Assembly: GCA_012295275.1 (NCBI GenBank)
Contig: CM022676.1
Location: 7,998,001-8,062,000, forward strand
Direction: 5' to 3'
Source: Chrysomallon squamiferum
Lineage: Eukaryota; Animalia; Mollusca
Length of the DNA: 64,000 nucleotides
Part shown: positions 1,768 to 61,898 of the stretch, piece after piece
How positions within the stretch are numbered: the first letter of the stretch is position 1
Layout of the letters: each line of letters starts with the position of its first letter
Notes under the pieces: generated by a model
What the model saw: the letters and a program-made list of their open reading frames with translations, nothing else
Told to the model about the DNA's origin: nothing
Databases searched by the model: none
Program-made: the position numbers and the translations under genes

Positions 1768-2177
1768 GTTTGCTAGGTAACCAAGGTTCAAACTACTCAC
1801 AAAGTTTTATACCTGTAATCTTATAGCTTACCCGTTTGTGTTACGTAGACCGTAGCGCGCTCTAAAAAAAAATAATAATAATAATAAAAACAATTCTAAA
1901 AAAAAAAAAAAAGAAGGTCATTGCGACTTGTCTCCTGTTACTGGTGTTTGGTTCATTGTTGACGTAATACGAAGCGAACATGTAATATATAGATGTTGTG
2001 AGTGTGTTCATGATTGTATTGTGTGAGGGTTTTCTCGTACGTATTTACAGACAAAAAAGAGAAAGAAGTTGACATGCAGATACACGCCTTGTATAGGCAC
2101 ACTTATATTTATATCCGTTTTTATTATGATTATTATTGTTGTTTTTGTTGTTGTCGTCATTACCTTCAACATCAGGG

Positions 2178-2236
<59 letters not shown>

Positions 2237-2869
2237 GTTGTTGTTGTTTTTATTATTATTATTATGATTATTATTATGATTATTATTGTTATTAATATTA
2301 TTGTTATTGTTGTTGTTGTTGTTGTTGTTGATGTTGATGTCTCTCCTTCATGTTGTTTTACAGTTATTGTTGTTATTACTCTTGTATTTGCTGTTGTATT
2401 TGCTGTCTATTATTGTTATTATTGTTGCCTAATGTTGGAAACCAGTCTACTATCAAACTCACATTTGATTTCTTTACACATACTGTGCACTGAACCGAAA
2501 CAAAAAAAAAACATAGCTAAAATGATCTTATTGAAATCACAATCTATGCATTTCGTAAGGTTGTGTGTTTTCTTAGCCTGACACGACGAACTGGTGTATT
2601 TAAATGTGTTACTGTGACATTACGTGGTATATACGTAGTATGTAAGTTACAGAGAATTAATTTCCTTATTAACACATCACTGCACGTGTTTTAAATTACT
2701 TGCAGTTAACTGCTTTGAGTTTCGTTGTTATTGTTACCGGGTTGTTCTGTCATCATCATCATTATTTTTATTTATTGCTATTATTGCTATTATTATCCTC
2801 CGAGTTCTATTACAGCTAATACTGCAGCTACAAAAACAACAAGAACTACTACTACTACTACTTCTACTA

Positions 2870-3097
2870 CTATTACTACTACTACTCTGCTATATTACTA
2901 TACTACTAGTTCTTCTAATAGTATATTACTTACTAAACTCATGGCCGTCTTTAAAATATTACATACATATACAACTATTCACAGAAATAAACAGGTAAAT
3001 GATCGATACATTCAAACATATATTTATTGTATTGGTACTTCTTACAAAATCAAGCTCAAACATTAACAGATATTTACAGTTTAGTGTAGTAAAATAT

Positions 3098-4232: not shown

Positions 4233-7200
4233 TTATGTTGACATAGGTCTCTTCATTTTTTGTTCCATAAGTGAGGAGTATGCATCGGTGTCGCCCTCTG
4301 GTGGCGCATCATTTCCTGTAATAGAAATAGAAGGATACCGTTAATTAGGAGAGAATGATAGTAAAAGCAGTGATGGTGATAATGTTTATAATAATAACAT
4401 AGTAATGACGGCAATGTCAGTGATGACGACGATGGTGATGATGAGGATGATGATGATGATGACAATGATATGACAATAACGAGAACAAAATATCCGGAGG
4501 AAACTCAAAAATAATAAAACTAATCTATCGATGGATGGATGAACATCTGTGTCTGTATAACTGCCTGTGCAGGACACTTTATCTATAATTATTAAAAACC
4601 TAAATAAATTTAATTTACCTTTGTCTGGGGCTGGATGGTAATAAATCTCATCTACTTTATGGTTGCTGAAATTATAAACATCGAAAATTAATTAATAACA
4701 GGAAAAGTAGAAATACAGATCTTATTAATTACTAACAGACAAATTATTAATTAATTCTAAATAAAGTTAATAAACCACAATTATATATAAAAAATAAATA
4801 ATGCTATTATTAGTGCTAAAATATAGGCAAACTTTAATCATAAAATAGGCTAAAATTATATAAATACAGACTAAAGGCGAAAAATGTCTCGCTTGCTGTT
4901 TACCATTAGTTTATCCAAAATCTAGCTCTTTCCTTCTGAGTAAAACAAAATCCACTGTAATTTTAATTTTTGTTCACCTTTTAACTTTTCTGAACCAGAT
5001 AACAACAAAAACAACAACAACAACAACAACAAGTACGGCGACAGGAATACCAATAGCCAACCCTTCTCTATTATGAGTGTTATTTTGATCTAAAAATAAA
5101 ACAAAAATGAATTAGGCAATTATTTATATATGTTTTAAGTCGTGACAATCTTTATGTTGCATGCGTGTGAATGCGTGCGTGCGTGTTTATATTTTCAGAG
5201 ATTATAATAACAAAAAATAAAATAAAAAACATTTTAAAAGAACAGTATCTCTACTAATACTACTATTACTACTGCTATTGCTGTTACGATACTACTATTA
5301 CTACTGCTATTAGTATAATGACTACAACTACCGCTGTTACTACAAACTACTACTACTTCTCTTACTAAAGCTACGGCTTAACTGCTGTTTCTTTCGTATC
5401 TGGGGGTTGTCGCTATACACGTGTAAAAGCCATTTTCTGATTTGCTATTAATATCAGCCAATGAGACAACACTGTTATTACTTATCACGTGACCTGTGAC
5501 CTGCCATTCATAGTCACATGTCAGGAAAAATATCGCAGAACATATCACAGTGACAGACAAAACGGATTTAGTGAGTGACGAGGAAAGGAAAATGTTCATC
5601 CCTTATATTGCTAAAATTGGCATGCACTCAATTACAAATGGTGCTCTTGGCCTCTCAGTGGATATACTGAGGCAGGTTGTCAGTTTAGTCTGACTGTTTT
5701 CGCTTCAAATCCAAGAAAAACAAAAGTTAATAAAATCTAACCGTATCTGGCCTACAAAACAAACATACTTCCAAAGAATGAGCGAAATATTCCTTTGATC
5801 CTTAATTTCTTTTCAGCAGTTTATTATTTATAGTTCTTCAGTAGGTAGGTAATGTGTATTTGCTATTATTAATATACCTTCAGAGAGTAGGTAATTATTT
5901 ATTTGCTATTGTTAAATTATCTTCTATTAAAACGGTAACTTTTACTGGTGTTGATTATTTCTTGCATATGTGCATACTAAATAAACACATACTATATAAG
6001 CGCACAGACACATACACACGTAGATGCACACATATGGGTATGCATATACAGACATACATCCATACAAATATGGATATAAATATGGATCATTGAAATAAAG
6101 TTACATACATACATACATACATACATAATTAAATACATACAATATACACGTACATAAATTACATTACATTATATTAAATCACACGCACAGACACATATGA
6201 ATTTACACCTTGATATACATACTGACAAACACACTTCAGACTTCGGATTACTGGCAATGTTACATATTAACGTAACATTTAGTTTATTCTTCCTTGCAAA
6301 TTTAGTTAAACCTTTAATTATCGCAGTCGACGTAATCTATCTATCAATGTATATTGGTATATCAGTCTATCTATATATATATATATCTATCTCTATCTAT
6401 CTATCTGTGCATCAGTTTATCTTCCTGTTTTGATATTTTTTAATAAACATTTTATGATCTGTATTCAATATTAAATACAAAATAAAATGAATTAAAACTT
6501 ACACTCAACATTAATAATGATTTGTTTATGTGCTGTTTCGTTCGTATCCGGATTAACAGCAGTGCACGTGTAGACGCCATCTTGATATCTCGTGATATTA
6601 ATAATAAATAAGTTATTTTTACCTCTCACTTCTAGTTTTACTTCATTGCTGTCTGGTATGTAAACTCCACATCTCAATACTGTTCCTTGTTGACTGAGGT
6701 TGACAGATGTTATTGTCAGTGTGTTTATATGAATTGAACAGTAAAACGTGTATTCTTTTGGATGTTCAGTAAGAACATGACATTGACCGAGTGTACGTCC
6801 TCTGTTCATGCTGTATTCTGCGTTATTCACAAACCAAGTTATTAGAGGAAAGGCATCTCCTCGACAGGTAAAAGTAAAACGTGATCCAACAACTGCATAT
6901 GTGTCTGACGTTGTTAAATTGTGACCTTCAATTTAAAATAATGATAAAAACAATAATAACAATAAAATAAAATAATAATAAAAATTAAATTAAAAATATA
7001 ATAAAAAATATTAAAATTAAAATTGAAATTAAATTATTATTATTATTGATTAGTATTATTATTATTATTTTATTTTATTTTATTTTTATTTTTATTTTTT
7101 GATAATTACATTATTTCTAGGTTATACGTTACCTTGTGTTCTTCTCGTTATTATTATTATTATTATTATTGTACTTTATTACAGAATTTTACTTTGTATT

Positions 7201-7979: not shown

Positions 7980-8580
7980 TAGACACACACACACACACAC
8001 ACATACACACTATGTAATCTATAGCGTAGCAAAGTGAGCCAGACATTTACCTCTATACTATTAATAGTAAAAAAAGTTAATTTTACCTTTCACTTCCAGT
8101 TTTACTTCATTGCTGCGTTCTGCGTCATCACCACATCTCCACACTGTTCCTTGTTGACTGCGTTTGACAGATTTTATTGTGAGGAGATTTATATCATCTG
8201 AACAGTAAAACGTGTATTCTTTTGGATGTTCACCAAGAAAATGACATTCACCGTTCAATGCTCGTTCCATCTTATATTCTGTTTTATTCATAGACCAAAT
8301 TATATGAGGATAACCGCTTCCGTGGCATGTAAAAGTAAAAGGTGATCCAACAACTGCATATTTGTCCGATGTTGTTAAACTGTGATACTGACCTTTTTTA
8401 AAATAATAATAAAAAAATTATATAAAATTAAATAAAAACTAAAATTCAAGTTCAAAAATAATAATAATAATTAAATTAAAAAATAATAAAAACATTAAGG
8501 AATGCAGAATACATACCTTGTTCGATCAATACGAATCCCGGTAACATGAAAACACAGAATAACTTACAAATCATTTCCAT
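7816..8580 (-). CDS. IgSF gene A1: signal peptide + V-like Ig (+ truncated exon; predicted secreted, ~140 aa)
   Basis: SP 8517-8580 ([22 protein letters not shown]), V 8087-8392 (306 nt, open), then acceptor at 7868 giving [17 protein letters not shown] (truncated copy of the third-Ig exon of gene D). Confidence 0.6.
8087..8392 (-). CDS. V-like Ig domain exon of A1
   Basis: [34 protein letters not shown]...GEC...FYC...GTVWRCG...EVKLEVK, canonical splice sites. Confidence 0.85.
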
Positions 8581-12225: not shown

Positions 12226-17472
<5,247 letters not shown>

Positions 17473-19599
17473 TTCCAGTATTTTTCTTTTCGCTACTTTT
17501 TTCTTTCAAATCTTCCTTGTTTTGTTTTTCTTTTGCTATGCTACCACTTTTACCTCCTGTTCGCTGGTATCACAAAAAGAATAATATTTAGTTCAAATAC
17601 ATACACGTACTACAAGAAGAACACCAAGACCTCTATCGTAAAATCACCGACTCGACCTAAATAGTGATGATGCACGATTAGCTGACTAACACGTGACCGT
17701 GTATCAGCATGAAAACACTAGTTTAAACCGAGGATGGTCATCGCCATTCACCGCATTCCAAAGGCGGATGACGTCTCCGAATACTGTCTACGTGCAGAGT
17801 CTAATCAGGCGTACACAAGAAAAAAGAACTTAGATAAATTACGTACAGATATAGAGATATATACTTTAAAAAAATACAAAAAAAAACAACAACAACAGTA
17901 ATATAATAATACTGCAATACGCTTCCCTGTCTTCTGAAATAAAAATAATAAATAATTAAATAAACGTTGGACGTATATTAAGAAATAAAAAAAAAAAAAA
18001 AAAAAGAACATAAGACAGTACAGATAAAGATAATAAAATTACCAAGAATAAACAGAACTGACTTGCCTACAGAGAATATTAAAAACAAGGTTTTTAACTC
18101 TTCGTTTTGTTGTTTTGTTTCAAATTTAAGGAGCAGAAATCTGTTTGATTGAATGTGTTATCTATGTTTATTGTTTGTTCTGAACTTCTGTATGACGGGT
18201 GATTTAAAAATATACATTACGATATTACTATGCATCATTTCCGTTTTAGGGAACAACTGCAGCAATTTCAAGGTACAAATTAAGGTGTTGTTTACACTAT
18301 TATATCTATAGGTCGAATTCCAGGAGGTTGAAAGTAGATTTCAGATAAGGTCTTGTTATAATTAACATCATAGTTGTTTTTAGGGGGAATACAAAATATA
18401 TATTTAAAGAAACGATCCCATCACCATGACCCAGTCGAATCAGCTTAAAACTACCATTCATCAGCTTACAAAAATGAAAAACAAACGTTATTTTAGTGAG
18501 GAATCAGTAATTAAGTAAGTAAGTAAATAAATAGAGTAAATATAACCAGCGCTCCACCCAGATCCGCCTCTGACCTGATAAGATTTTACTAACACAGAAA
18601 TGTTTATATAACCTAGATACCTGTTGACTTTATCACCATTCTTCTCTCACTGCGTTTATGTTATTACTACGAAGACTTCTCTAAATTTACTAAAAAAAAT
18701 AAACTTTAGGTGTTTATAGAAAAAAGTATAAAAACGAAGGACACCCTGTTGAAAGTGGATAAGAATACCAGAAGTGCATTTTACTTCAGTCATCTGTCAT
18801 TACAAAATCATAGTACAGATAATTTATACGAAAATATCTCACGAACTGTTGCAATGTAAACAAATCAGGTTTCTTCTCGTCTGATATATATATATATATA
18901 TACATCTATGGGTGTGACTGTGTGTGTGAGTTTATTAATATATTTTACTAAATACCAGGTAAACTGCTACAACAGATCAGAAACACGCTTTACAGTTCAG
19001 GACCTCATTCTGACGAGAATTAACAGTGGACGATTAAAATATTCTTCACAGACTGAATACTATGGCCACTAATAAACATACACGCACAGAAACACACACA
19101 CCACACCCACACAAACACGCTGAAACTAACAGAACCAAATATTCCATATTTCATTTCCAGTCAGAATCACTCACAACATTTGCTGGGCCTCTTTCAAACT
19201 GGTCATAATATGTGCAGTCGACACGTTGATCAGAGAATTGAATTATTCTGGTACAACTAATCCTAATGTCTAGACAAATAAAAACAATGGTGAGCTTAAT
19301 ATAAATGTTAGAAAAAGTGAACATACAAAACATAATAATATTATTAATTTTATTATCCGGAAAATGATGCGAACAAATGCTTTACTAAAATACTAATAAT
19401 ATTTAAGAAATAATAATTAAGAATAACTGTTTTGTTTTGTTGCGCAAACACTTGCAAAGCTTTCTCTTTTTCTAACACTGGACCGCTGTTACAATTCAAT
19501 AATTTGCATCTGCGTAAATAGAATATATGTCGTTGAGTTTCACACTGAAAAGTCACGATTATCAAAACATTTTTCTCTCTTCTTATTTGTCTTTTTCTC

Positions 19600-19800
19600 T
19601 GAGTGTGGAGTGTGTCCTGTACGAATAATCTTCATTCTCACTGTTTCTATTCCTGTGAATTTGAATTCTACTTTCAGGATGTGTTCATTCAAATCAGCGA
19701 GCAGGCAGCCGTCTACAGATTCTTTTTTAAACGCGTCAATATGTCTCTCCAACTTTAAAGCTTTCATTATTTCGCCAAGCTCGGCTATTGTTAAATCCAT
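19600..19800 (-). pseudogene. SAM (sterile alpha motif)-like domain coding segment
   Basis: MDLTIAELGEIMKALKLERHIDAFKKESVDGCLLADLNEHILKVEFKFTGIETVRM..IRTGHTP fits the SAM pattern L..L.L..Y/H...F....IDG..L..L.E..L. Confidence 0.75.
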
Positions 19801-20589
19801 CCGTTTTTTTCTTAAAAACAGCTTTTCCTCTGACATAATCATCAACACTGTTGCTTGTGACGTAATCTTCTTTGGTAGTGACTTTAACGTCAATCTGAGT
19901 GCTATTTTTATTGACGTCACGATTGTTCCTGTCTAGAGTGACGTCATAATTATTGCCTTCTGCTTCACTAGTACCTCTCGTGATGCAATCACGACTGTTT
20001 CCTGCGGTGACGTAATCATCTTTTCTTCCTGGAGTATAATCCTCGTTACCTTTTCTGACGTAACCACACTTCCAGAGACAATCATAGTCACTAGTACTAT
20101 TGTCGTAAACAGATGATATTGTTTCACTGAGTTATCTCTCTTGATTTGTTTTTTTCTCCGTGGAAATGCGAACAGTCGGACAGGGTCAAATACTCTTCTT
20201 GACCTTTCGCTAATCTGAAACAAATCTGTCAGGTTGTAGTGCTTTGTAAATATTGTCTGCTTGAGTCGTGTCCACAGCCACTTGTTTGCACAGAGCGATA
20301 TCTGAAGAAAAATAATTCACACACACACACACACACAGATAGACACGCAAACACACACAGATAGACACGCAAACACACACACACTCAGACACACACAGAT
20401 ACACACACACAAACATACTCAGACACACATTTTAAAACATAACTACAAACATAAATACATGCTGCTACTGCTGATGCTGCTACGGATATTAGTGTCACTA
20501 CTACAGTTACTACTAATACCGCTACTGCAACTACTACTGCTCGTGCTATTCCTACTAATACCCCAACTACTACTACTACTACCACTACC

Positions 20590-20682: not shown

Positions 20683-20694
20683 CATTAAAATTAC

Positions 20695-21003
20695 CTCTGA
20701 CTTCCAGAATAATTTCATTACTTTTTTCAGTTCCTGATTTTCCACCACAGCTCCAAATGGTTCCTTGATGAGTGATTTTAGCTCGCTTTATTGTGAGTTG
20801 GAAAACGGATTGTGAACAGTTGAATATGTAGGCAGGATTGGGCTGGGGTGGAGTACATCGCCCGTTTTTGTCTACACGCACGTTGTAGTGGATGTTGCTC
20901 TCAAACCACGTGACAGTGTTGTCGGCCACGTCTGTGGTACAGGTTAAGATAAAAGGAGAGTCAATGTTTCCATAGTAACGAGACGATTTCAAGTGATGTA
21001 GAC
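20695..21003 (-). CDS. V-like Ig domain exon of C
   Basis: 309 nt, PFILTCTTDVADNTVTWF...GRC...IFNC...FQLTI...GTIWSCG...SNEIILEVR|gtaatt. Confidence 0.85.
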
Positions 21004-25184: not shown

Positions 25185-26368
25185 TCAAATTTAAGATTGG
25201 GATTACAACTTAACAACATCAGACAGATATGCAGGTCTTGGATCACCTTTTACTTTTATCTGTCGAGGAGATTTTCATGGAATAGTTAGCTGGTTTGTGA
25301 ATAACACAGAATCCTGGGTAGCTCTTCTAGGAAGACAAGGCCAGTGTGATTTTTTCCCTAAACATCCAAACAAATACAGTTATAGCTGTTCAGATGATGT
25401 GAACACTCTCACAATAAAATCTGTCAAACTCAGTCAGCATGGAACAGTGTGGAGATGTGGTGATGATGGAGGAAACAGCAATGAAATAAAACTGAAGTGA
25501 GAGGTAAAATTAACTTATTTATTATTAATATTATCGTTCGACCTGTTTGAGGTTAAAAAAAAAAAAAAAATGAAATAAAACCCGAAATGAGAGGTAAAAT
25601 CGATTTCATTACTATCATTCTATAAAATATGTACTGTTAATGACAATTAAACAATAAACACAAAAAAACTAGACAGTACCATAATTCAGAGGTATTATAT
25701 TTATAATTATCTTTCTAGGAAATGTGTTCTGTTAATGATAACTAAACAATGCATCTCAATGAAACAAAATAAAACTGGAAGTCAGATGTAGTATCAGTTT
25801 TGTGCTTATAATTGTCTTTATGGTGGACATGAAAGAAAGTCCACCGTAATCAGATGATTAAACAGATACGTACGTGTACACTAACATATGTACAATCACA
25901 GAATTGCTATTATCAGTAAGAATAAAACAAAAATATGACGACAATGATTAAAATGCTCGCGGTGATGATGATGACGTTGTTGATAACGTATTTTGGTTTT
26001 TGTTGTTTTCTTATTAGATGGTCCTGGAATGTCACTCAAGTTGAATACTTCGTCTGTTGTGACTGCTGTGGAAGGAAGTGACGTCACAGTGTCTTGTTCG
26101 GCGACGTGTTTCATCACGTGTAATTTTCTGTGGAAGGTCGCAGATGACATCATAAGTAACATGAGCGTTCTCTCATTGGCTAACGTTACTAGATCACAGT
26201 CAGGTCTCTATGTGTGTACGGCTGAAAATCCAGATACGAACCAAACTACCAATAAAATACTTCATTTGACTGTCCATCCACGTAAGTAAGAATAAAAATA
26301 TAATAAAACTAAAATGATAAATTAAACAGACAATTTAATACATATTTCTTAGAGTTGTTATGTGTGAA

Positions 26369-26410
<42 letters not shown>

Positions 26411-27637
26411 CTGTTTGCTTACGTGGGTGCGCATGTGTATGTGGACATGTGCGCGCATATTTTTTTTTTTTTTTTGGTTTACTCTTTGTAGTTTACTTTC
26501 AGGTCCGCCAAATCTTCGAGGGTCCGCGCCATACGCTATCAGCGGTCTTTTTTTTACGTTTACATGTCAGATTTTTCAGTATTCACATCGCGTCACGTGG
26601 TTTGAGAATGACGTCATCTATGACGGACACTCTGATGTTAGGTCACGTTTTAGTGGAAATTACACTTTCAAATGTTTACGTAACAAGTTTCTAGTTACTA
26701 TAACATCTGTCAACAGAAATCAACAAGGAGATATTTGGCGATGTGAAGACACGGATCATGGGTATTCGAGTAACAGAGTCGTCTTGAAAGTTAGAGGTAT
26801 CTTAATTTAATTTAGTTCAGTTTAATTTAGTAGTGGTAGAAGTTGTAGTACTAACACCATCATCATCAACATCATCTTCATAATAATAATAATAATAACG
26901 ACTACAACAACAAGTGTATCAACAGCTATAATAATAATGATGATGACGATGATGATGATGATTATGATGATGAGGATCATTTTGATAATAATAAAAACAA
27001 CCATATATCATTCCTGTATTTTTTTTAACTTTTTAGGTTTTATTTATCGTTTATTTTTTTATTTTTTTATTTTTATTTTTTTATTTTTTTTTTTTTGTAT
27101 TTACACAGACGGTCCCGAAACGTCACTTCGAGTCAATTCTTCATCTAACATCACAGTAGAGGAAGGAAGTGACGTCACAATATCGTGCAAAGCCGATTGC
27201 TTTATCAAATGCCTTTACAGATGGGAACTGACCAATCAGATTGTCAGTAACAACAGCCTACTGGCACTGAATAATATTACGAGATTTCAAGATGGCGTCT
27301 ATACATGTACTGCTGTTAATCCGGATACGAACCAAACAGCACATAAACAAATTATTATTAATGTTGAGTGTAGGTTTTACTTTATTTTATTTTGCATTTA
27401 ATTTTGTACAGAGATCATAAAAGGTTCATATAAAAATATCTGAATAGGACAGAAATAGACAGATATAGGCAACATATGTACAGATAGATCGATAGAAATA
27501 GATGGACAGATATACATATACATACATATATGTGTTTATATGTATGAATAGATGTATGTATGTGTACGTACTTGTTTAGGAATGTATGTTTTTTGTTTTC
27601 TTCTGACCCTCTTTCTGTGTGTGTGTGTATGTGTACG

Positions 27638-40744: not shown

Positions 40745-43485
40745 CTAAACAGTTTCGCTGGCATTCTGTGATTGGTTGTCAAAATCTATGACCTCATAGA
40801 ATTCATTTTCTTGATCCCCATGTGAGGAGTTTGGACCGGTGTTGCCCTCTGTTTCTTTACCAGGTGGCGCTTCATTGGCTGTAATAGAAATAGGGGGATA
40901 CCGGTTAATTAGTAACCAGTAAAAATAATGAAAAAAAAAGGATACCTAAGATATTTGGAGATATACTTAAAGAGAAAATGATAGTAAAAGCAGTGATGAT
41001 GATGATGATGTTTTTAATAATAATAATAATGTAGTAATGATGATTATAATACTGATGGTGATGATGATGATAATAATAATGATAGCAATGACGTTGACAA
41101 CGGCAGCGATGATGATGACAATAACCATAAAGAAAAAGAACCCTGGATAAAATTCAAAAATATTAAAACGTATGGCTGGCTGGCTGGATGGATGGATGGA
41201 TGTATATATGTCTGTTTGTGTATACTTTGACTATAATTATTAAAAACCTAAATAAATGTAAATTACCGGTACTTTGGGCTGTATTGTAATACGCGTTTTC
41301 TTCAGTGTGTTTTCTGAAATTATAAATTAATAACATGAAAATTTTAAAATATAGATTTCATTAAGTGCTCACAACAAACTGTTAATTAAATATAGGTAAA
41401 AGTAACTGGAAATAAAGTTAATAAGCCACAATTGTATTTTATAAATTAAGTAATGATAATATTAATGCTAAAAATATAGGTAAAATTAATCTATAATAAT
41501 TGGCTAAAAGTATTTAAATACAGGCATCATTAATTAATTACTAAAGGCTAAACATGTCTGACTTGCTATATACCATTAATTTATCCAAAATCTAGCTCTG
41601 CCATATCTGTAACATATCCCTAAATTATATCTAAATTATCCCGATGATATCCCTAACCCATCGCCATTATACGGTCACTGTTATTCCATACGTTTATCTC
41701 TAACCTACGCGTGATATATTTGACCGTATACGTATACGTGGAATATATGTAGAATGTTATAACCAGTAGATACTATTGTGGTAGAGTAGTAGAAGTAATA
41801 GTAGTAGATGTAGTAGTAGTAGTAGAAGTAGTACTACTAGTAGTAGTAGACGTAGTAGTAGTAGTTCTTGTTGTTGTTGTCGTAGCTGTAGTAACAATAC
41901 GAGGGGTACTAGTAGTAATAAATAATGATGATGATGATGATGATATGTTTTACCATATATATAGAATATCATTAACTTTTCCTTATTAACCCTTTATCTT
42001 ATATCTAATGGATAGAATTAGATGAATAACATATCCCAGTATATACATATCGTATCCTTGTTATATCCATGACTAATCCCACTTATATCATTAGCTTATT
42101 TGTTACCAAAATAAATCGCAATTTTTTAATACGAATTTTTTTTTTTTTTTTTTTTTTTTGGTGGGGGTTGTTGTTGTTGCTGCTGTTGTTGTTTCAGCAG
42201 CTGTGATTTGTAATTCGCTATTTATAAATTAATCTTTCCTTCAAAATTGTGCTCACATCATTTATTACCTTGACGGAAATACAAATTAATTAACTTTTGT
42301 TTTCCCGCACAATGCATTTGCCCTTTGTTTACCAGTAACACAGAATTCACTACAATCTTAAATTTTGTCCACCTTTTGTGTTTTCTGAACCAGAAAACTA
42401 AAAATAACGCAGCGCCAACAATTAAGAATATGACGACAGCAAAACCAGTAGCAAATCCTTCTCCAAAATGATTGTTGTTTTTATCTGAAAATAAAATAAA
42501 ATAAAATAAACAAAATAATAAATAATAAAATAAGAATGAATTAGGCAATTATTTACAAATGTTTTAAGACGTAAACATTTTTATGTTGCACGCGGATGTA
42601 TCTATATATGTATGTATGTGGCTATGTGTGTATTTCGGAGATTATGACAATTATTGCTTAACTCCTGCTATTACTACTATCAAACAAACAATATACTGCT
42701 GCAAATTATTGCTACCACTACTACTTCTACTATCACTACTCAAAAGTATAAGTGCTACTATTGCTTGGATAAATAAACGAATCAAGAAAGAATGCAATTA
42801 CAGAACAAAAAAGAGAAATGAAAGAATAAGAAAAATAGAAGTATTTGTATTGTAATTTCGAGTTTTTCTACTTTATATAAAAAAAATATTCATAAAAGTT
42901 TTGTATGACCTCTCAAATCCCCTATAATAATTTTCACAGTCTGATTGGCCGTTTCTTTCGTATCTGGGTTTGTGGCTGTACACGTGTAGACGCCTATTTT
43001 GTGTTCTATTAATATCAGCCAATGAGAGAACACTGCTATTACTTATCACGTGCCCTGTGACCTGCCATTCATAGTCACATGTCAGGAAGCATTTCGCAGA
43101 ACATGTCACAGTGACGTCACTTCCTTCCGCGACAAACAAAACGGATTTAGTCGGAAGAGAAGTCAGCCGAAGCGATACAACGGGACCATCTAAAATAAAA
43201 AAACAATCACATTGCGTTTATCCACATTTGTTATTCATTTACTACTGCCACTACTGCTTTTACTGCTTCTACTACTACTACTACCATTACTACTAATAAT
43301 AATACTACTATCACTACCACTGCGACTACTACTACTACTACTATTACTACTACTACTACTACAATCTACTTGTACTATGTTCTTGAGGATGATTATTATT
43401 ATTCATTATTATTATTATTATTATCATTATTATTATTATTTTTATTTTTATTATCATCATCATCAATCAATCATTATTACTGTTG

Positions 43486-43541
<56 letters not shown>

Positions 43542-43705
43542 GCTACTACTATACTACTACTACAATTATTATCGTGGTGGTCATTATTACAATTGTTATT
43601 GTTGATATTTATATTCGTGTTATTATTTTGTTTTTGCGCTCGTCATTCACTTGTTATCCTTGATGTATGTATGCATGCATCGTATGGTCTATGTACTGTA
43701 TACTT

Positions 43706-43763
<58 letters not shown>

Positions 43764-44191
43764 GCCAGACAAAAAAAAAACACTGTTAAATATAAAACTG
43801 CAGCAGTATATAATTAAACTATTAACGACATGTAATACGTAAGGTAAAAATATTAATAATAAATAATTTTACCTCTCACTTCCAGTTTTATTTCATTGCT
43901 GCGACCTCCCTCATCACCACATCTCCAAACAGTTTCCATGTTGACTGAGGTTTGACAGATTTTATTGTGAGGGTGTATGCATCAGCTGAACAGTTAACAG
44001 TGTATTCCTTTGGATGTGCAGTTGAAAAATTACATTGGCCTTGTCCTAGATCATGCACCCTGTATTCTTTGTTATTCTCAAACCATACAATTGTAGAAGC
44101 AGGACCTCCTCGACAGGTAAAAGTAAAATGTGATCCAACAACTGCATATCTGTCTGATGTTGTTAAATTGTAATCCTGACCTTAAATTTAA

Positions 44192-47003: not shown

Positions 47004-52655
<5,652 letters not shown>

Positions 52656-52680
52656 CTGAGATTGGCCAGCTCGTACTACA

Positions 52681-52689
52681 TTTTATATA
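52681..52689 (-). promoter_or_regulatory. TATA box candidate
   Basis: TATATAAAA ~26 nt upstream of the ATG at 52655. Confidence 0.4.
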
Positions 52690-53125
52690 GCTTGTGCCTA
52701 AAACAAGGAGGTTTTCTTCGTCCCGTTTGTGATGACGTAATTGAATCTAGAGGACGTCACTCCTAAAGGATCTATATTTAGCAACACGATACAGTAAGAT
52801 ATTATCATTGTTAAGTTCTTACTGTTTTGTTTTTCTTGTTATTGTTGTGTTTTTTATAATAATAATAATTATTGTTGTTGTTGTTGTTGCTGCTGTTGTA
52901 TTTTATTATCATTATTATTGTTGTTCTTGTTGATGTCTGTCCTTCGTGTTGTTTTACTGTTACTTTGTTCTTATTATTTTGCTAATGTCGTCATTATTGT
53001 TGTTGCTTCTGTTGTTATTATTATTGTTGTAATTGCTGCTGGTCTTGCTGCCTTTATTAACGTTGTTATTGTAACAAGTGTTAATTGTATGAACGTTATT
53101 CTTGTTGTTACTGGGTTTTATTATT

Positions 53126-53219
<94 letters not shown>

Positions 53220-53636
53220 GTTCATTTTTATCATCATTGTCCTCATCATTATTTATTACTAGGAATACTCCTCCTACCCTTTTACAGCTAATGCTACAAC
53301 AACAGAACAAGAAATACTACTACTACTACTACTATTATACCATATGACAATACTACTCGCTCTAATAATATATTACTATATTCATGGCCGTCCTAAAAGT
53401 ATTATATATATATATATACAACCATTCACAGAAATAAAAATGTAAATGGTCGAGACAATTAAATATATATTTATTGTACTGGTTTTGCTTCGACAAAATC
53501 AGTTTTAAATATCAACAAATATTTTCAGTTTAGTGTAGTAAATGTTTATTTATTTATTTATTTATTTACAGAAAGTCATAATACACATAGGTTAGAATAG
53601 GACGCCATAGTATAGTCTATACTACTATAACAACTG

Positions 53637-53669
<33 letters not shown>

Positions 53670-54180
53670 GTTTATACTAGTATCGCTCTGTTTATTTACA
53701 TATGTATGCATTACCACTGTTTTCATTCTACATCTATTTCTGGTTTGTATGAAAAATTTACAAAATATAACATTTTATTTTAATTAACAAAGTAATTTTA
53801 GTTTCAGGAATAGTTTGAGTAGTTGCTACTGTAAAAAATATAATGGTTTTATTTTTTATTTTTTTTAAACTGAAAGTTGACGAATTAAAATGGCGAATTA
53901 ATTCAGGAAACCTGTGATGATAGATGCGCGGGTGGGGGGCTGACATGTGACGTAATCAACAGGATGGCAGACGATAGAACATAGGTGATGATCAAAATAT
54001 CTTAATAATTAATTCTACTTAAAAAAAAAGAAAAGAAGAAGGAGAAAATAGTAAAGTATACAAAATGAAAAAAGAATAAAATAAATTTAGATAATCAGGG
54101 GGAAAAAGAAGAAGAAAACACTAAAAATTGCGTTTATATTTATTTAAATATCACAATATTGTTATTATCCTTCTGGATTC

Positions 54181-54186
54181 TTTATT
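54181..54186 (-). terminator. polyadenylation signal candidate of the knottin gene
   Basis: AATAAA 17 nt after the TAG of the 6-nt final coding exon. Confidence 0.5.
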
Positions 54187-54202
54187 CAGCTGTATTAGGC
54201 CG

Positions 54203-55067
54203 CTAGTTCTGTAAATAAATAAATAAATAACATGAAGACACATATAAATAACTGGAAATTAAAAATAAAATTAAAACAAATAAATAAGCAAATAAAACGA
54301 ATAAATTAAAATAAAATGAAATAAAGAAAAATAAAATCAAAATAAATGTCATTGCACACCACAGTTCAGTACAGTAAAATATAGTACTGTATTGCATAGT
54401 ATATAGTACAGTACAGTAAACTATAGTATATATATAAATATAGTATAGTATAGTATGTATAGTACAGTTCAGTCCAGTATAGAATAATAATATACAAAAA
54501 AATTTAATTTAATTTAATTTAATTTAATTTAATTAATTACTTTATTTATTAAATAGTTTAAGAAATAAACTTACGTGATGATGACAGTTTCCTAAGTGGT
54601 CAGCGGGATGACAGTGGTACCCATCACAACATGGCCTATCAACTGGACACGAGTCAGGGTCATCAAAACAAGTGGGTGTCTCTCTCTTCACTTTAACTGA
54701 GAAGAAAAAAAAATGATATTAATAAAATTTAAAAAATTGGTACCTGCAAAACCTACAAAATTGTAGTTCCCAGTCATAATAGGATCAAAGCACCAGCCTT
54801 TCTCCTCAAAGATTTTAATGCCCAACCCATTCCCCTGGATATATAACCCTACATTGTTCGCCATACCATGTGAAATCCTGCTGTAAACAGAAATGCTCAT
54901 GAAAACTAATAACGTACCATGATGACAGTTTCCTAAGTGGTCAGCATGATGACAATGGTACCCATCACAACATGGCCTATCAGCTGGACACGAGTTAGGA
55001 TCATCATAACAAGTGGGTGTCTCTTTCTTCGCGTGAACTGAGAAAAAAAAAAAATAACAACAACAAC

Positions 55068-55115
<48 letters not shown>

Positions 55116-57630
55116 TAATAATAAACGTCGACAATAAAGCAGTAGTTCCAAACCTCCTCTTCTCCTCAGATAATTTAATGACCCCCACACAGGACAATTA
55201 AAGTCAATTTCTGAAAACGTCGAGAAAAAAGCAGCAGTTCCCAATCTCCATACCCTATCTCATCTCCTCAAAGATTTCACTGCTTCCTTCTACTCCAATT
55301 ACTGAAGTCAAAAATATATTCTAGACCCATATGACCTTGTTCATTAACAAAATTATGCGATTAAATAATTAACTCATTTGATACCCCATGATCTTGTGGC
55401 CATGGTACTTGATGTAGGAAGATTTGTTATTACATAGCATTAAACATTCCCTTGATGTACTGTGTTCGCCATACATTGTGAAATAATGCTATAAACAGAA
55501 ACACTCATGAAATCTGAAGTACTTCATCGTTCAAATGGAGAATAATGTATCTCACGTTACATGTTTTTCTTGTGCATATAATGTAAACAGTTATTCTTTA
55601 ACTAATTACTTACCATGATGACAGTTTCCTAAGTGGTCAGCATGATGACAGTGGTACCCATCACAACATGGCCTATCAGCTGGACACGAGTCAGGGTCAT
55701 CAAAACAAGTGGGTGTCTCTCTCTTAACTTTAACTGAGAAGGGAAAAAAAATGATAGTAATAAAATTTAAGAAATGGCATCTGCAAATACTATAAAGTTG
55801 TAGTTCCCAGTCTTTATAAGGTCCATACTCCAGCCTTTCTCCTGTAAGATTTTAATGCCCACCCCTCCGCCGCAGGATATAAAAGCCAACCAATTTCTGA
55901 AAACGTCGAGAATAAAGCAGCAGTTCCCAGATCGTACAGTATAGAGATTAATGTATCTGAAGTACTCGATAGTTCACTTTACAGATTAATGTATGCGAAA
56001 TTAAGTGGTTTTCTTTTCCATATAATGCAAACAATTATTCCTTAGCGTAAGGAAAACTAATTACTTACCATGATGACAGTTTCCTAAGTGGTCAGCATGA
56101 TGACAGTGGTTCCCATCACAACATGGCCTATCAGCTGGACACGAGTCAGGGTCATCAAAACAAGTAGGTGTCTCTCTCTTCACTTTAACTGAGAAGAAAA
56201 GACAGTGATAGTAATAAAATGTTCAAAAGTGGTACCTGCAAAAACTACAAAATTATAGTTCCCAGTCATAATAGGATCAAAGCACCAGCCTTTCTCCTCA
56301 AAGATTTTAATGCCCCACCCATTCCCGTGGATAAATAACCCTACCAATTTCTGAAAACATCGAGATTAAAGCAGTAGTTGTAACCTCCATACACTATCTC
56401 ATCTCCTTAAAAATGTTATGTGTTGAGGACATGTTCTGGACCTATATGGCCGTGTTCATTAACACAATTGTGTGATAAAATAGGTCACGTTTAATTAAGT
56501 AATTAACTTATATGGTATGCCAGGATTTTTAAGCTATCTACAGTACTTGATGTAGAGAGATTTGTTCTTATTACATCACATTAAAAATTCAATTTATGTA
56601 TGGCGTCCGTCACAGATTTTCAAATCCTGCTATAATCAGAAATACTCATTAAATCTGAAGTACTCTATGGTTCAGTATGGACATTAATGTATCTGAAGTT
56701 ACGTGTGTTTATTTAACATACAATGTAAACAATTGTTCTTTAACTTAAGGAAAACTAACAACTTACCATGATGACAGTTTCCTAAGTGGTCAGCATGGTG
56801 ACAATGGTACCCATCACAACATGGCCTATCAGCTGGACACGAGTTAGGATCATCATAACAAGTGGGTGTCTCTTTCTTCGCGTGAACTGAGAAGAAAAAA
56901 TATAATAATAATAATAAACGTCGACAATAAAGCAGTAGTTCCAAACCTCCTCTTCTCCTCAGATAATTTAATGACCCCCCATACAGGACATTAAAGTCAA
57001 CCAATTTCTGAAAACGTCGAGAATAAAGCAGCAGTTCCCAAATCGTACAGTATAGAGATTAATGTATCTGAAGTACTCGATAGTTCACTTTACAGATTAA
57101 TGTATGCGAAATGTAAGGAAAACTAATTCCTTACCATGATGACAGTTTCCTAAGTGGTCAGCATGATGACAATGGTTCCCATCACAACATGGCCTATCAG
57201 CTGGACACGAGTCAGGGTCATCAAAACAAGTGGGTGTCTCTCTCTTCACTTTAACTGAGAAGAAAAGACAATGATAGTAATAAAATGTTAAAAAGTGGTA
57301 TCTGCAAAAACTACAAAATTATAGTTCCCAGTCATAATAGGATCAAAGCACCAGCCTTTCTCCTCAAAGATTTTAATGCCCAACCCATTCCCCTGGATAT
57401 ATAACCCTACATTGTTCGCCATACCATGTGAAATCCTGCTGTAAACAGAAATGCTCATGAAAACTAATAACGTACCATGATGACAGTTTCCTAAGTGGTC
57501 AGCATGATGACAATGGTACCCATCACAACATGGCCTATCAGCTGGACACGAGTTAGGATCATCATAACAAGTGGGTGTCTCTTTCTTGGCGTGAACTGAG
57601 AAGAAAAAATACAATAACAATAACAATAAC

Positions 57631-57681
<51 letters not shown>

Positions 57682-59253
57682 CGTCGAGAAAAAAGCAGCA
57701 GTTCCCAATCTCCATACCCTATCTCATCTCCTCAAAGATTTCACTGCTTCCTTCTACTCCAATTACTGAAGTCAAAAATATGTTCTAGACCCATATGACC
57801 TTGTTCATTAACAAAATTATGCGATTAAATAATTAACTCATTTGATACGCCATGATCTTGTGGCCATCTACGGTACTTGGTGTAGGAAGATTTATTACAT
57901 CGCATTAAACATTCCCTTGATGTACTGTGTTCGCCATACATTGTGAAATAATGCTGTAAACAGAAACATTCATGACATCTCAAGTACGCCATCGTTCAGT
58001 ATGGAAAATAATGTATCTGAAGTTACGTGTTTTTCTTGTGCGTATATTGTAAACAGTTATTCATTAACTAATTACTTACCATGATGACAGTTTCCTAAAT
58101 GGTCAGCATGATGACAGTGGTACCCATCACAACATGGCCTATCAGCTGGACACGAGTCAGGGTCATCAAAACAAGTGGGTGTCTCTCTCTTAACTTTAAC
58201 TGAGAAGGAAAAAAAATGATAGTAATAGAATTTAAGAAATGGCATCTGCAAATACTATAAAGTTGTAGTTCCCAGTCTTTATAAGGTCCATACTCCAGCC
58301 TTTCTCCTGTAAGATTTTAATGGCCCACCCCTCCCCAGCAGGACATAAAAGCCAACCAGTCTCTGAAAACGTCGAGAATAAAGCAGAAGTTCCCAGATCG
58401 TACAGTATTGAGATTAATGTATCTGAAGTACTCGATAGTTCACTTTACAGATTAATGTATGCGAAATGTAAGGAAAACTAATTCCTTACCATGATGACAG
58501 TTTCCTAAGTGGTCAGCATGATGACAATGGTTCCCATCACAACATGGCCTATCAGCTGGACACGAGTCAGGGTCATCAAAACAAGTGGGTGTCTCTCTCT
58601 TCACGGGAACTGAGAAGAAAAAAAAATGAAATAAAATAAAATTAAAAAATGGCATCTGCAAAAACTATAAAGTTGTAGTTCGCAGTCTTTATAATGTCCA
58701 TGCTCCAGCCTTTCTCTTGTAAGATTTTAATGCCCACCCCTCCCCCGCAGGATATAAAAGGCAACCAATTTCTGAAAACGTCGAGAATAAAGCAGCAGTT
58801 CCCAATCTCCATACCCTATCTCATCTCCTCGGTGATGCTACTGTCCCCTCCCCGAACCAATTTCTGAAATGTAGAGAACATGAACTAGACCCATATGACT
58901 AACTCAGTTAAATGTAGCTGAGCACTCGGTCGTTCAGTATGGAGATTAATGTACCTGAAGTTACGTGTTTTTCTTTTTCATATAATGTAATCAATTATTC
59001 CTTGACTAATTATTTACCATGATGACAGTTTCCTAAGTGGTCAGCATGATGACAGTGGTACCCGTCACAACATGGCCTATCAGGTGGACACGAGTCAGGG
59101 TCATCGAAGCAAGTTGCAGCAGCTATAAAAACAAAACTAAATATTATTAAAACAAAAGTAGTATTAATTTAGTTAATGTTCGTCAAATATCGTTAGTTTT
59201 CGTAAAATATCAAGAGGAAAAAACGCTAAATGAAATTAATGTAATAAACAAAT

Positions 59254-59295
<42 letters not shown>

Positions 59296-59438
59296 CTTAA
59301 TAACAGAAAAATATTAGAACTGAAAAAAAAAAAAAAAAAAAAATAAATAAAATGAAATGAAATGAAATGAAATAAAATAAAGTAAAATAAATAGGTACCA
59401 CAGCAAATTGTAGCGGCAAAAAGTAACAAAAATTTCAT
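54203..59438 (-). CDS. secreted polyprotein precursor of ten His/Asp-rich knottin-like (C-C-CC-C-C) peptides, 410 aa
   Basis: Exons 59399-59438 (MKFLLLFAATICC), 59018-59122, 58490-58609, 58080-58199, 57476-57595, 57135-57254, 56767-56886, 56069-56188, 55614-55733, 54918-55037, 54575-54696, 54203-54208 (N*). 1233 nt, all GT-AG, no internal stop; unit (VKVKR|VHAKK)ETPTC(F/Y)DDP(D/N)SCPADRPCCDG(Y/N)HCHHADHLGNCHH. Confidence 0.88.
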
Positions 59439-59495
59439 CGTGATCGTTTCAAGAGAACAACCAAATTATGGTGTTCGTACGGAAAGTAAACGTCC

Positions 59496-59502
59496 TTTTA
59501 TA
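59496..59502 (-). promoter_or_regulatory. TATA box candidate of the knottin gene
   Basis: TATAAAA ~58 nt upstream of the ATG at 59438. Confidence 0.55.
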
Positions 59503-60745
59503 CCAAATTTACGGTAGGAGTGACTGTATTAGGTGATAACGACATCTGCTTATCTCGTCTGTTGCGTTCATGATTACGTTTTTCAGGCCTTATCATTCCT
59601 CAAGTGACGTACATCACAAAATCAGCATTTTTTTTCTTTTTTTTTTTTTTCATTAGTCCGTATTTTGTTATTTGTTTTATTTTTTAACATTGAATTTTTT
59701 CTAAAACTGCAAAAAATACGTTTTTGGCTCTGAACTGTAATTTGATTTTTGATATTAATAATAATGATAAAAATAATAATAGTGGGGATAATGACAATGT
59801 TTAAGATGATAATAAATAAATAAATAAATAAATAAATAGCGAAACGATTCTTTTTGATTACCATTGCTTTGTGCGAATTAAATTAGGTGTTTTTTATTTT
59901 TTATTTTTTATTAATTTTTTTAATTATTTTTAACTACTCTGTATTATAAAGAGTTATTTAATAATATATAAACATTAAATAATAATAATAATAATAATAA
60001 TAATTTTGTCTGAAAGTAGGCTGTGGGAAATAAGTTATAAGGTGCCCTATGTTAAAGGAGGAGTAACAACTTACAGCGAATTATAAATGGAGGGTAAGTT
60101 ACTTTTTGTAGTTGATTATTCTACTTTATCTTAACTTATTGTTACAGATGCGATAATTCAAAGCAATTATTTCATAATATTTTATCTATAATCGTAGAAA
60201 AACTTGTCAAATTATTTAAGATTAGTTAATATTATTATTGGCCTTTTTTTAATTTAATGTTCCTGAACGCTGAAATGTTAATGACGTCATGCAAAGAGAA
60301 CCTGCCGATTTCGAAGTACAAATTTTCGGAATATATGACCTCGACAACATAAATTAACACCATGTTAGTATAATATAAACAACAACAACAACAAAAGTGA
60401 TAATACGCTATGGAATTTACCATTCTTTGGCGCATAATACCTACATTTATTAATTAATATGAATATGGATGAAAGTGGCTACAAATGGCGCCATGTTTTT
60501 TGTGGTTTTCTGAGGGGGGGGCGGAGGATTTGAACTTTTCAGTTGTTCTCTTTTTGTGGGCTTTTTTTCGACAATCGTAATAATCAGTATATAGCTATAT
60601 ATTTAAACAAAACTAGAGTAATACCGTAGACAATTATTTCAACTCTAAATAATGTATTTTAGTTGTTGTTGTTGTTGTTGTTTCGTTGTTATTATTATTA
60701 TTATTTAATTTTAATTTTAATTTTAATTTTAATTTTGCAGTAACC

Positions 60746-61145: not shown

Positions 61146-61898
61146 TTGTTTTTATTGTTATTATAATTATGATTATAGTTGTTAATACGATTATTGCATT
61201 AATACAATTATAATTTCTTTTTGTATGCTGTTATTGTTATTATTGTAATTATTATTATTATAAAATTATAGTTTTTCGTATTTTTTTTATTGTTGTTGAT
61301 TCAAAATTATTAATGCCGCAGTTATTATAACAAAATATTTATTTGTATCGCTTTAAAAAAATGTTAATATTTCTGCACATAGAAAATTACACCAACATTT
61401 TATTTTATTTTTTTTCATGATTTTTTTTTTTTTATTATTATTATTACTTTTTAAAAATATATAATTATGGGCTTCAGATAAGCCTCTCCTGAGTAATAGA
61501 AAAGAAACACCTTATTCTTCTCAGGTCAAACTCTAGAGTTATCTGGGTCTTCAAACCTGGCTAAACTAAACCATTCATTCACTCTAACATGCACAGTGAA
61601 CGAGGCAGTCGAACTTGAAGACAAAATTGTTTTTCACCACAAAACAAATCTCAAATTTGCTGTCATTTATCAAGATCTGTTTCGATGCTTTCTCCTAAGT
61701 CCTCCTCCATTTGGCTACAAATTTTCATGTGGCCAGGACAATTTCTACAGGAGCACAAATACAAAGGTGTACAAGATGACAATTGAGAGAGTGCAGTTGA
61801 GAGATGCGACAAAATGGTGGTGTGTCCTGGACAAAGCACAGAGAGCCAGCAACAGTTTGAAACTCAATATAGAGTACTTTGGTAACTAATTTTATTTT

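Follow-up and report, generated by a model that had tools for sequence, protein, structure and literature searches.

A predicted eleven-exon gene of Chrysomallon squamiferum encoding ten acidic, histidine-rich six-cysteine modules

The minus strand of a 64,000-nucleotide stretch of the genome of the mollusc Chrysomallon squamiferum (contig CM022676.1, positions 7,998,001 to 8,062,000; hereafter the window, with all coordinates counted from its first letter) carries, from 59438 to 54575, a gene predicted to encode a secreted precursor of ten cysteine-rich modules. A leader exon with 40 coding nucleotides (nt) is followed by ten module exons, the first of 105 nt, the next eight of exactly 120 nt each and the last of 122 nt. 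The splice borders are canonical AG/GT at all module exons. Acceptors of the nine exons that bear a linker ahead of their module all consist of a pyrimidine tract and then ctcag/TT, and the donor reads CATCATG/gta in nine out of ten module exons, that of the last module being CATCATCAC/gtaagt. Introns between modules are phase 1 throughout, the split codon being a valine (G/TT), and the joined exons run in frame for 1227 nt, or 409 open codons up to the last module. A preliminary description of the locus had proposed this same arrangement, in which ten module exons, eight of them 120 nt long and phase 1-1, follow a leader exon, and its borders, phases and frame all check. A gene on the plus strand was ruled out, as only antisense fragments are found there.

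The coding part of exon 1 (59399..59438; this and all other exons on the minus strand) opens at 59438 with the first ATG to follow the in-frame stop, has an A at -3, and comprises the ATG and a hydrophobic leader, MKFLLLFAATICC (13 codons), plus one base before the donor G/gtacct. A second candidate donor, T/gtggta, lies 3 nt upstream (59399-59402 for the pair). Both are phase 1, and the choice between them changes one leader residue, giving ...IC-S-AA or ...ICC-A-AA. Exon 2 (59018..59122, 105 nt) completes the leader (AAA) and encodes module 1, which lacks a KR linker ahead of it, and exon 3 (58490..58609, 120 nt) carries module 2 behind the linker VPVKR. Of the other exons of 120 nt, those with the linker VKVKR are exon 4 (58080..58199, module 3), exon 6 (57135..57254, module 5), exon 8 (56069..56188, module 7) and exon 9 (55614..55733, module 8), and those with VHAKK are exon 5 (57476..57595, module 4, with a CYDDPNSC variant), exon 7 (56767..56886, module 6) and exon 10 (54918..55037, module 9). 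Donors of the form gtacgt are also present at exons 5 and 10. Exon 11 (54575..54696), with module 10 behind VKVKR, extends for 122 nt to the donor CAC/gtaagt and ends in CHHH.

The cysteine pattern C-x6-C-x5-CC-x4-C-x8-C occurs exactly ten times in a three-frame translation of the minus strand from 54100 to 59600, once in every module, and a relaxed six-cysteine scan of the 64 kb in six frames gave no further module copies besides microsatellite translations. The modules stand 11 residues apart and are 85-97% identical in pairwise comparison. Each of the nine linkers (VKVKR five times, VHAKK three times, VPVKR once) holds a dibasic pair, KR in six cases and KK in three, with K at P2, K or R at P1 and T-P-T adjoining the pair. 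All nine have a convertase-type site, defined as a dibasic pair or K/R-x-K/R-R (K-V-K-R in five, P-V-K-R in one and H-A-K-K in three). At the other end of the precursor, the leader consists of Met-Lys, eleven hydrophobic or small residues and Ala-Ala-Ala, and by inspection looks like a signal peptide; module 1 starts 3-4 residues past it, and both a propeptide and a dibasic site are absent there.

In the 393 residues past the leader, His makes up 16.0%, Cys 15.3%, Asp 14.5% and Pro 10.7%. The module is polarised, with Asp in its first half (C-F-D-D-P-D-S-C-P-A-D-R-P-C-C-D-G) and His in its second (H-C-H-H-A-D-H-L-G-N-C-H-H). Cut at the linkers and trimmed, the precursor would yield ten peptides, each 35-38 residues long and together representing six distinct sequences, with a reduced average mass of about 3.9-4.25 kDa and 6-7 His and 6-7 Asp plus Glu each; their isoelectric point (pI) is 5.1-5.7 when computed with the cysteines as free thiols. 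The cysteine spacing, the dibasic linkers and the acidic, His-rich character named in the preliminary description are thus borne out throughout the array.

The ends of the transcript are less sharply defined. The TATA box proposed earlier corresponds to a candidate, TATAAAA, at 59496..59502 (minus strand), 64 nt upstream of the ATG, which lends the gene model modest support: the window is AT-rich, and the word occurs 53 times on its two strands, or about one time in every 2.4 kb of strand. For the 3' end, two predicted models are equally possible. In one, unspliced read-through past the last module (54542..54574) adds ten residues, with TAA at 54544-54542 and AATAAA at 54550-54545, for a product of 419 residues. 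In the other, the donor at 54575/54574 would be joined to a mini-exon (54181..54208) behind the acceptor ...tttacag, with AAC TAG at 54208-54203 and AATAAA at 54186-54181, for a product of 410 residues. The 6-nt last exon with AATAAA that had been proposed is the second of these; its sequence is present as described, but it is just one of two possible ends. AATAAA is so frequent in the window (450 occurrences, about one per 284 nt of strand) that it gives weight to neither, and the last module's gtaagt could simply have been inherited from a duplicated unit.

Recent tandem duplications of blocks holding one to three exons, introns included, built up the array. Exon-plus-intron blocks of 300-800 nt recur in tandem over 54578..58829 (minus strand) at 80-97% identity. 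Block 58472-57679 is matched by 56005-55215 and block 57713-57136 by 55157-54578, both at about 95%, and a three-exon block, 58472-57136, pairs with 56005-54578 at about 95% identity. Microsatellites of the type (AAT)n/(AATTT)n lie in intron 9 (55040-55110) and intron 4 (57610-57680), at equivalent positions in the duplicated blocks and with unequal lengths; others are found at 54500-54540 and 59250-59300. No sequence of the gene region recurs in the remainder of the 64 kb window, and derivation of the introns from dispersed repeats was ruled out by the absence of any blastn match elsewhere in the window.

Is so young an array a working gene? Since the units were duplicated together with their introns, they owe their intact frames in part to inheritance, and the ten copies cannot count as ten independent observations. 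What is informative is to set exons against introns within the same units. Among the nine linker-bearing units, the exons are mismatched at 252 of 4320 pair-sites (5.8%) and have no gapped sites. In their 150-nt flanks, mismatches reach 17.3% and 26.7%, and 28-31% of sites are gapped. The jump in divergence is sharp at the splice borders, with 3-5 times as much divergence in the flanks as in the exons. In the youngest three-exon block the contrast is weaker than across the nine units but has the same direction, with 7 mismatches in 359 exon positions and no gap openings, versus 41 in 971 and nine gap openings in the introns (Fisher p 0.048). Variable columns number 18 of the 120 in the exon, and none of them makes a stop or loses a cysteine; variation is greatest in the linker, with 6 of the 18 within the first 15 nt. 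The ratio of nonsynonymous to synonymous divergence (dN/dS, NG86), taken as a mean over 36 non-independent pairs, comes to 0.36 overall, with 0.22 in the 35 core codons and 0.77 in the four linker codons.

These figures bear directly on the possibility that the locus does not work at all, being a very young, undecayed array, a copy that is never expressed, or a product of misassembly with too many repeats. The partly inherited frames in units that are 80-97% identical even in their introns would suit such a locus, as would the lack of an orthologue in the protein libraries searched. However, the exons have been spared both mismatches and indels relative to their flanks, the core dN/dS is low, the 18 variable columns have cost neither a frame nor a cysteine, and a phase-matched leader exon with an ATG stands in front of the array, with TATAAAA upstream, so that a non-working locus appears very improbable. 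Because the exons are far less diverged than the introns, the core dN/dS is low and the leader exon is phase-matched, a functional coding gene is much the likeliest explanation.

Relatives of the module were sought widely. One module was compared with about 5.8 billion proteins in a word-index search (subjects of 71-2000 and of 22-70 amino acids), which gave no candidate, and an exhaustive HMMER profile search matched none of 1,835,955,588 representatives at E <= 0.001; the profile has 39 positions and is weak for distant kin, though a close multi-module orthologue in the library would have shown. Pfam gave no family for two of the three modules scanned, and for module 1 sub-threshold scores at E 0.2, namely 12.7 bits to Toxin_12, where the cut-off is 21, and 12.4 bits to Toxin_9, where it is 21.3. 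In the PDB, profile searches turned up Tsp1a (E 0.047 and 0.043) and asteropsin G (E 0.37), none of them significant, the local match being short and placed around C-x-x-x-R-P-C-C-[DE]-G-x-x-C. In a protein-language-model atlas, the nearest clusters are spider toxins of the inhibitor cystine knot (ICK) type, at 0.85-0.87 and below the lead level of 0.9.

A metagenome scan yielded 72 stretches that fit the pattern, two of which passed tblastn, and both were rejected. One (L002) is an off-frame match within a high-GC bacterial open reading frame (ORF). The other (L001, 922-1440, plus strand) is a bacterial-looking His-rich ORF of 172 amino acids from stop to stop that has only DRPCCDGY in common with the module, which is put down to chance. 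Six words of 7-8 residues from the module have no occurrence in the literature searched, and no His-rich tandem knottin polyprotein turned up there by keyword, as judged without full texts. The search of a module against protein libraries, as proposed beforehand, thus returned no strong match to a characterised family, and within the searches made the peptide family appears to stand as undescribed at the sequence level. The earlier claim of an undescribed family holds to that extent, there being no Pfam, PDB or protein-library relative, but the architecture has precedents in multi-CRP-I, SCREPs and X-tox, which are taken up below.

Whether the module folds as a cystine knot is a separate question. 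The ICK consensus is C-x3-7-C-x3-6-C-x0-5-C-x1-4-C-x4-13-C, and the loop lengths fall within this window in all ten modules. Membership of a curated knottin family, which takes a significant sequence match, failed, as the Pfam scores are sub-threshold and the best PDB E value is 0.043. Two AlphaFold models, with mean confidence (pLDDT) of 78.2 and 78.8, both have a one-turn helix and a two-residue hairpin. Neither had a Foldseek match in the PDB, a search by which peptides this small are poorly served, and a wide VIA-align search gave a single row (half-SLPI, Z 2.1) for one model and none for the other, again with the proviso that these are very small peptides. In a knottin the disulfides link cysteines I-IV, II-V and III-VI, the third bond passing through the ring, and a small triple-stranded sheet or a hairpin lies around Cys V-VI. 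Synthetic mussel CRP-I peptides, which have the same C-C-CC-C-C array, are described as bonded 1-2/3-4/5-6 (PMC4558851), and therefore the cysteine array alone is no proof of a knot. The knottin-like character claimed in the preliminary description is a resemblance and does not establish membership: the cysteine spacing fits, but no family match is significant and the structure models and searches gave nothing usable.

Should the modules be released as peptides, they might be knottins of a defensive or toxin-like kind, directed at ion channels, proteases or microbes in the manner of conotoxins, spider toxins or mussel CRP-I, with His and Asp only tuning their activity, for example by pH. Such a role would be consistent with the ICK-range spacing, with the similarities to Toxin_12 and Toxin_9 (one module of three), Tsp1a and asteropsin G, and with the spider toxin clusters in the atlas, and anionic knottins do exist, the sponge asteropsins being described as both anionic and Pro-rich (PMC13418204). 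None of these similarities reaches significance, however, and the peptides differ from CRP-I as published in ways that make a toxin-like role unlikely. They are acidic, at pI 5.1-5.7, and CRP-I peptides basic, at pI 8-9.5; the ten near-identical modules are the opposite of the hypervariable CRP-I mature regions; and the CRP-I peptides themselves are reported in that description to have shown no toxic or antimicrobial activity (PMC4558851).

How, then, would the precursor be used? The reading we prefer, with a probability of roughly 0.45 for the whole chain, is one of secretion, cleavage, trimming and cation binding. The eleven-exon gene would be translated into a hydrophobic leader and ten near-identical six-cysteine, His/Asp-rich modules, from which the signal peptide would be removed after AAA. 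Furin or PC-type convertases, judging by the motifs, would cut after K-x-K-R or x-x-K-K at the nine linkers, and trimming of the basic pair would leave the ten peptides of 35-38 residues. Each module would form three disulfides, perhaps as a cystine knot. The peptides would then bind divalent cations, either transition metals or calcium mineral, by way of the Asp-rich N-terminal and His-rich C-terminal halves, and their role would be other than that of a cationic toxin or antimicrobial. Dibasic linkers have been read as processing sites elsewhere, both in ScrepYard (PMC9885460) and in mussel multi-CRP-I, for which cleavage is proposed in the published description (PMC4558851). As regards the preliminary description, which had one transcript releasing ten such peptides, what it observed stands, and its interpretation finds partial support.

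Several points weigh against this chain of events. The conservation is known from young paralogous repeats alone, as no orthologue was found, and shared ancestry or gene conversion may have homogenised them. Expression, splicing and the 3' end are predictions from sequence. The pair KK, which is cut less reliably than KR, occupies three of the nine sites. Phase 1-1 exons encoding one domain each are typical of extracellular mosaic proteins that stay uncut, and T-P-T, which follows each site, might just as well serve as an O-glycosylated hinge in such a multidomain protein. The structure models reach a pLDDT of only 78-79 and match no solved structure, and the proposed metal- or mineral-binding function is drawn from composition alone. 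Finally, the X-tox proteins, a "rosary" of cysteine motifs, are described as remaining unprocessed (PMC2728511).

In a different picture, the secreted protein stays whole as a ten-module SCREP or "rosary" of about 43 kDa, its modules joined by short, possibly O-glycosylated hinges, and serves as a multivalent component of a metal-cross-linked or mineral-associated matrix. The layout of one module per symmetric phase-1 exon is a classic one for uncut extracellular mosaic proteins. The T-P-T beside the dibasic pair in each linker would suit a hinge, and 16% His and 14.5% Asp would suit a multivalent cation-binding material. In X-tox, according to the published accounts, the motifs likewise lie in separate exons (PMC4558851) and are not cut into single motifs (PMC2728511). 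On the other hand, the dibasic pair is kept in nine of nine linkers although the linker changes fastest within the exon, and the X-tox spacers are, by contrast, described as having no conserved cleavage sites (PMC2728511). An uncut protein is the main alternative but seems somewhat unlikely.

If the peptides are indeed released, what might they do? Metal or mineral binding is possible, a guess that follows from the composition and from molluscan precedents for His/Asp-rich or Cys/His-rich binding proteins. In bivalves, plasma proteins with a high content of His and Asp are described as binding calcium and metals (PMC6530089), and perlinhibins, which are Cys/His/Arg-rich mini-proteins of nacre, as inhibiting CaCO3 crystallisation (cited in PMC6003135). 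A carboxypeptidase-inhibitor role, suggested by the hydrophobic tail that trimming would leave at the C-terminus, was considered as well and set aside. Since the internal exons are all 120 nt long and phase 1-1, the frame would survive the loss or doubling of any one of them, and module number could presumably be tuned through splicing or through changes in copy number. A bolder proposal, and an improbable one, would make the gene the founding member of an undescribed, lineage-restricted group of anionic, His-rich knottins, organised as a one-exon-one-peptide polyprotein in which exon duplication and skipping set the dose, and with a metal- or mineral-binding role in metal homeostasis, nutritional immunity or shell formation. 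Such a role is not established for knottins.

The window has a G+C content of about 31% and is rich in microsatellites, with (CA)n, (GA)n and (AAT)n tracts throughout, including those at 2000-3000, 43200-43800 and 52000-53300. Around the peptide gene, on both strands, are paralogous immunoglobulin (Ig)-domain exons of at least two types, which are 37-79% identical within a type and match Pfam Ig_3, Ig_2 and I-set. Those on the minus strand lie at 6603-6923, 8070-8396, 15745-15990, 16654-16992, 20693-20998, 43001-43126, 43868-44187 and 51262-51492, and those on the plus strand at 25204-25497, 26069-26272, 26511-26798 and 61500-61889. Together they look like a tandemly expanded gene family of the Ig superfamily. 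The exon at 61500-61889 has two molluscan clusters as its closest in the atlas (0.96 and 0.95, with the phylum known for 5 and 12 members), whereas a homology search with a neighbouring gene had no hit at E <= 0.001 among 191 candidates. Beside the Ig exons, an open frame at 19540-19932 (minus strand) has sub-threshold matches to SAM_1 (E 0.0048) and SAM_2 (E 0.0068), and may be the cytoplasmic tail exon of an Ig gene. Rfam and tRNA scans of the window gave no match.

If the peptide gene is expressed and processed as proposed, a single gene would supply ten stable, disulfide-rich peptides of about 4 kDa. Their acidic chemistry, with 16% His and 14.5% Asp, would be unlike that of the cationic toxins and antimicrobials that dominate the C-C-CC-C-C array, and would widen the known use of the scaffold. 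A compact mini-protein that binds metals through His and Asp would also become available for study. ORF-based annotation would overlook such genes, as would screens for short precursors with few cysteines: the 2015 bivalve survey of CRP-I is described as having kept precursors of less than 100 amino acids with at most 7 Cys, a filter that would have dropped a protein of this kind (PMC4558851).

The closest described systems are the multi-CRP-I of Mytilus and the SCREPs with dibasic linkers. Multi-CRP-I are described as secreted precursors of 2-5 C-C-CC-C-C arrays with dibasic sites, at which cleavage is proposed (PMC4558851; PMC10138031). As far as those descriptions go, the two share a good deal: both are molluscan, both are multi-module C-C-CC-C-C precursors, secreted or predicted to be so, whose modules multiplied from a single one, and both have dibasic sites, proposed peptides of about 2.5-4 kDa and a leader exon that closes at a phase-1 intron. 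The differences, as drawn from the published descriptions, are nevertheless considerable. The ten modules here are encoded one per exon and lie 11 residues apart, whereas the 2-5 arrays of multi-CRP-I are all in the last of four exons and lie 2-4 residues apart. Exon duplication is ruled out by the authors for multi-CRP-I, whereas duplication of exons with their introns is evident here, making the array a clean and recent case of growth by this route. CRP-I precursors have a conserved propeptide of about 15 residues that ends in KR or RR; here, module 1 follows directly after the leader. The CRP-I consensus is C(X3-6)C(X1-7)CC(X3-4)C(X3-5)C, in which the last loop is too short for the eight residues found in all ten modules, though the other loops fit. 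To these is added the contrast, noted above, between hypervariable, basic mature peptides and near-identical, acidic ones (PMC4558851). The features of CRP-I membership that were tested, namely the last loop, the propeptide, arrays in the last exon and basic, hypervariable peptides, all failed.

SCREPs are described as an architectural class, not a homologous family, in which two-domain forms are the most abundant and the ICK is absent from the 20 commonest repeat folds (PMC6262176; PMC9885460). The predicted protein has the features of the class: a leader (by inspection), ten repeats of more than four Cys each, and 60 module cysteines, which make up 15.3% Cys against a filter of more than 10%. 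As it matched no InterPro or Pfam family, the module would fall in the SCREP "unknown architecture" set. The protein is also a pure tandem repeat with dibasic linkers, a category that ScrepYard, as published, treats as processed and of which it set aside 2153 tandem cysteine-rich proteins (PMC9885460).

More distant likenesses are found in three other groups. The X-tox of Lepidoptera, in the accounts cited, are secreted proteins with many tandem cysteine-stabilised motifs, one per exon (as stated in PMC4558851), as is predicted here. Spod-11-tox has 11 such motifs, and X-tox in general are not processed into single motifs and have unconserved spacers lacking cleavage sites (PMC2728511). The X-tox motif is defensin-like, of the cysteine-stabilised alpha-beta type, and not the C-C-CC-C-C that is found here with KR or KK kept in every linker. 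ICK toxins, such as the spider toxins of Toxin_12 and Toxin_9, tarantula Tsp1a and those of cone-snail framework VI/VII, also have six cysteines, a vicinal CC and loops in the ICK range, but are made as single- or double-domain precursors, and neither 16% His nor a ten-module, exon-per-module gene was found described among them. The perlinhibins and the His/Asp-rich plasma or extrapallial proteins of bivalves are analogous in composition only, a likeness set by description: perlinhibin is Arg-rich and not Asp-rich, and the bivalve plasma proteins are large and not repeats of cysteine modules.

Taken together, the predicted gene is a sequence-orphan, exon-per-module, acidic and His-rich form of a known class of tandem cysteine-rich secreted precursors. 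Judged by the published descriptions, what sets it apart from multi-CRP-I and SCREPs is its exon-per-module layout, the number of its modules, the length of the last loop and its acidic, His-rich chemistry.

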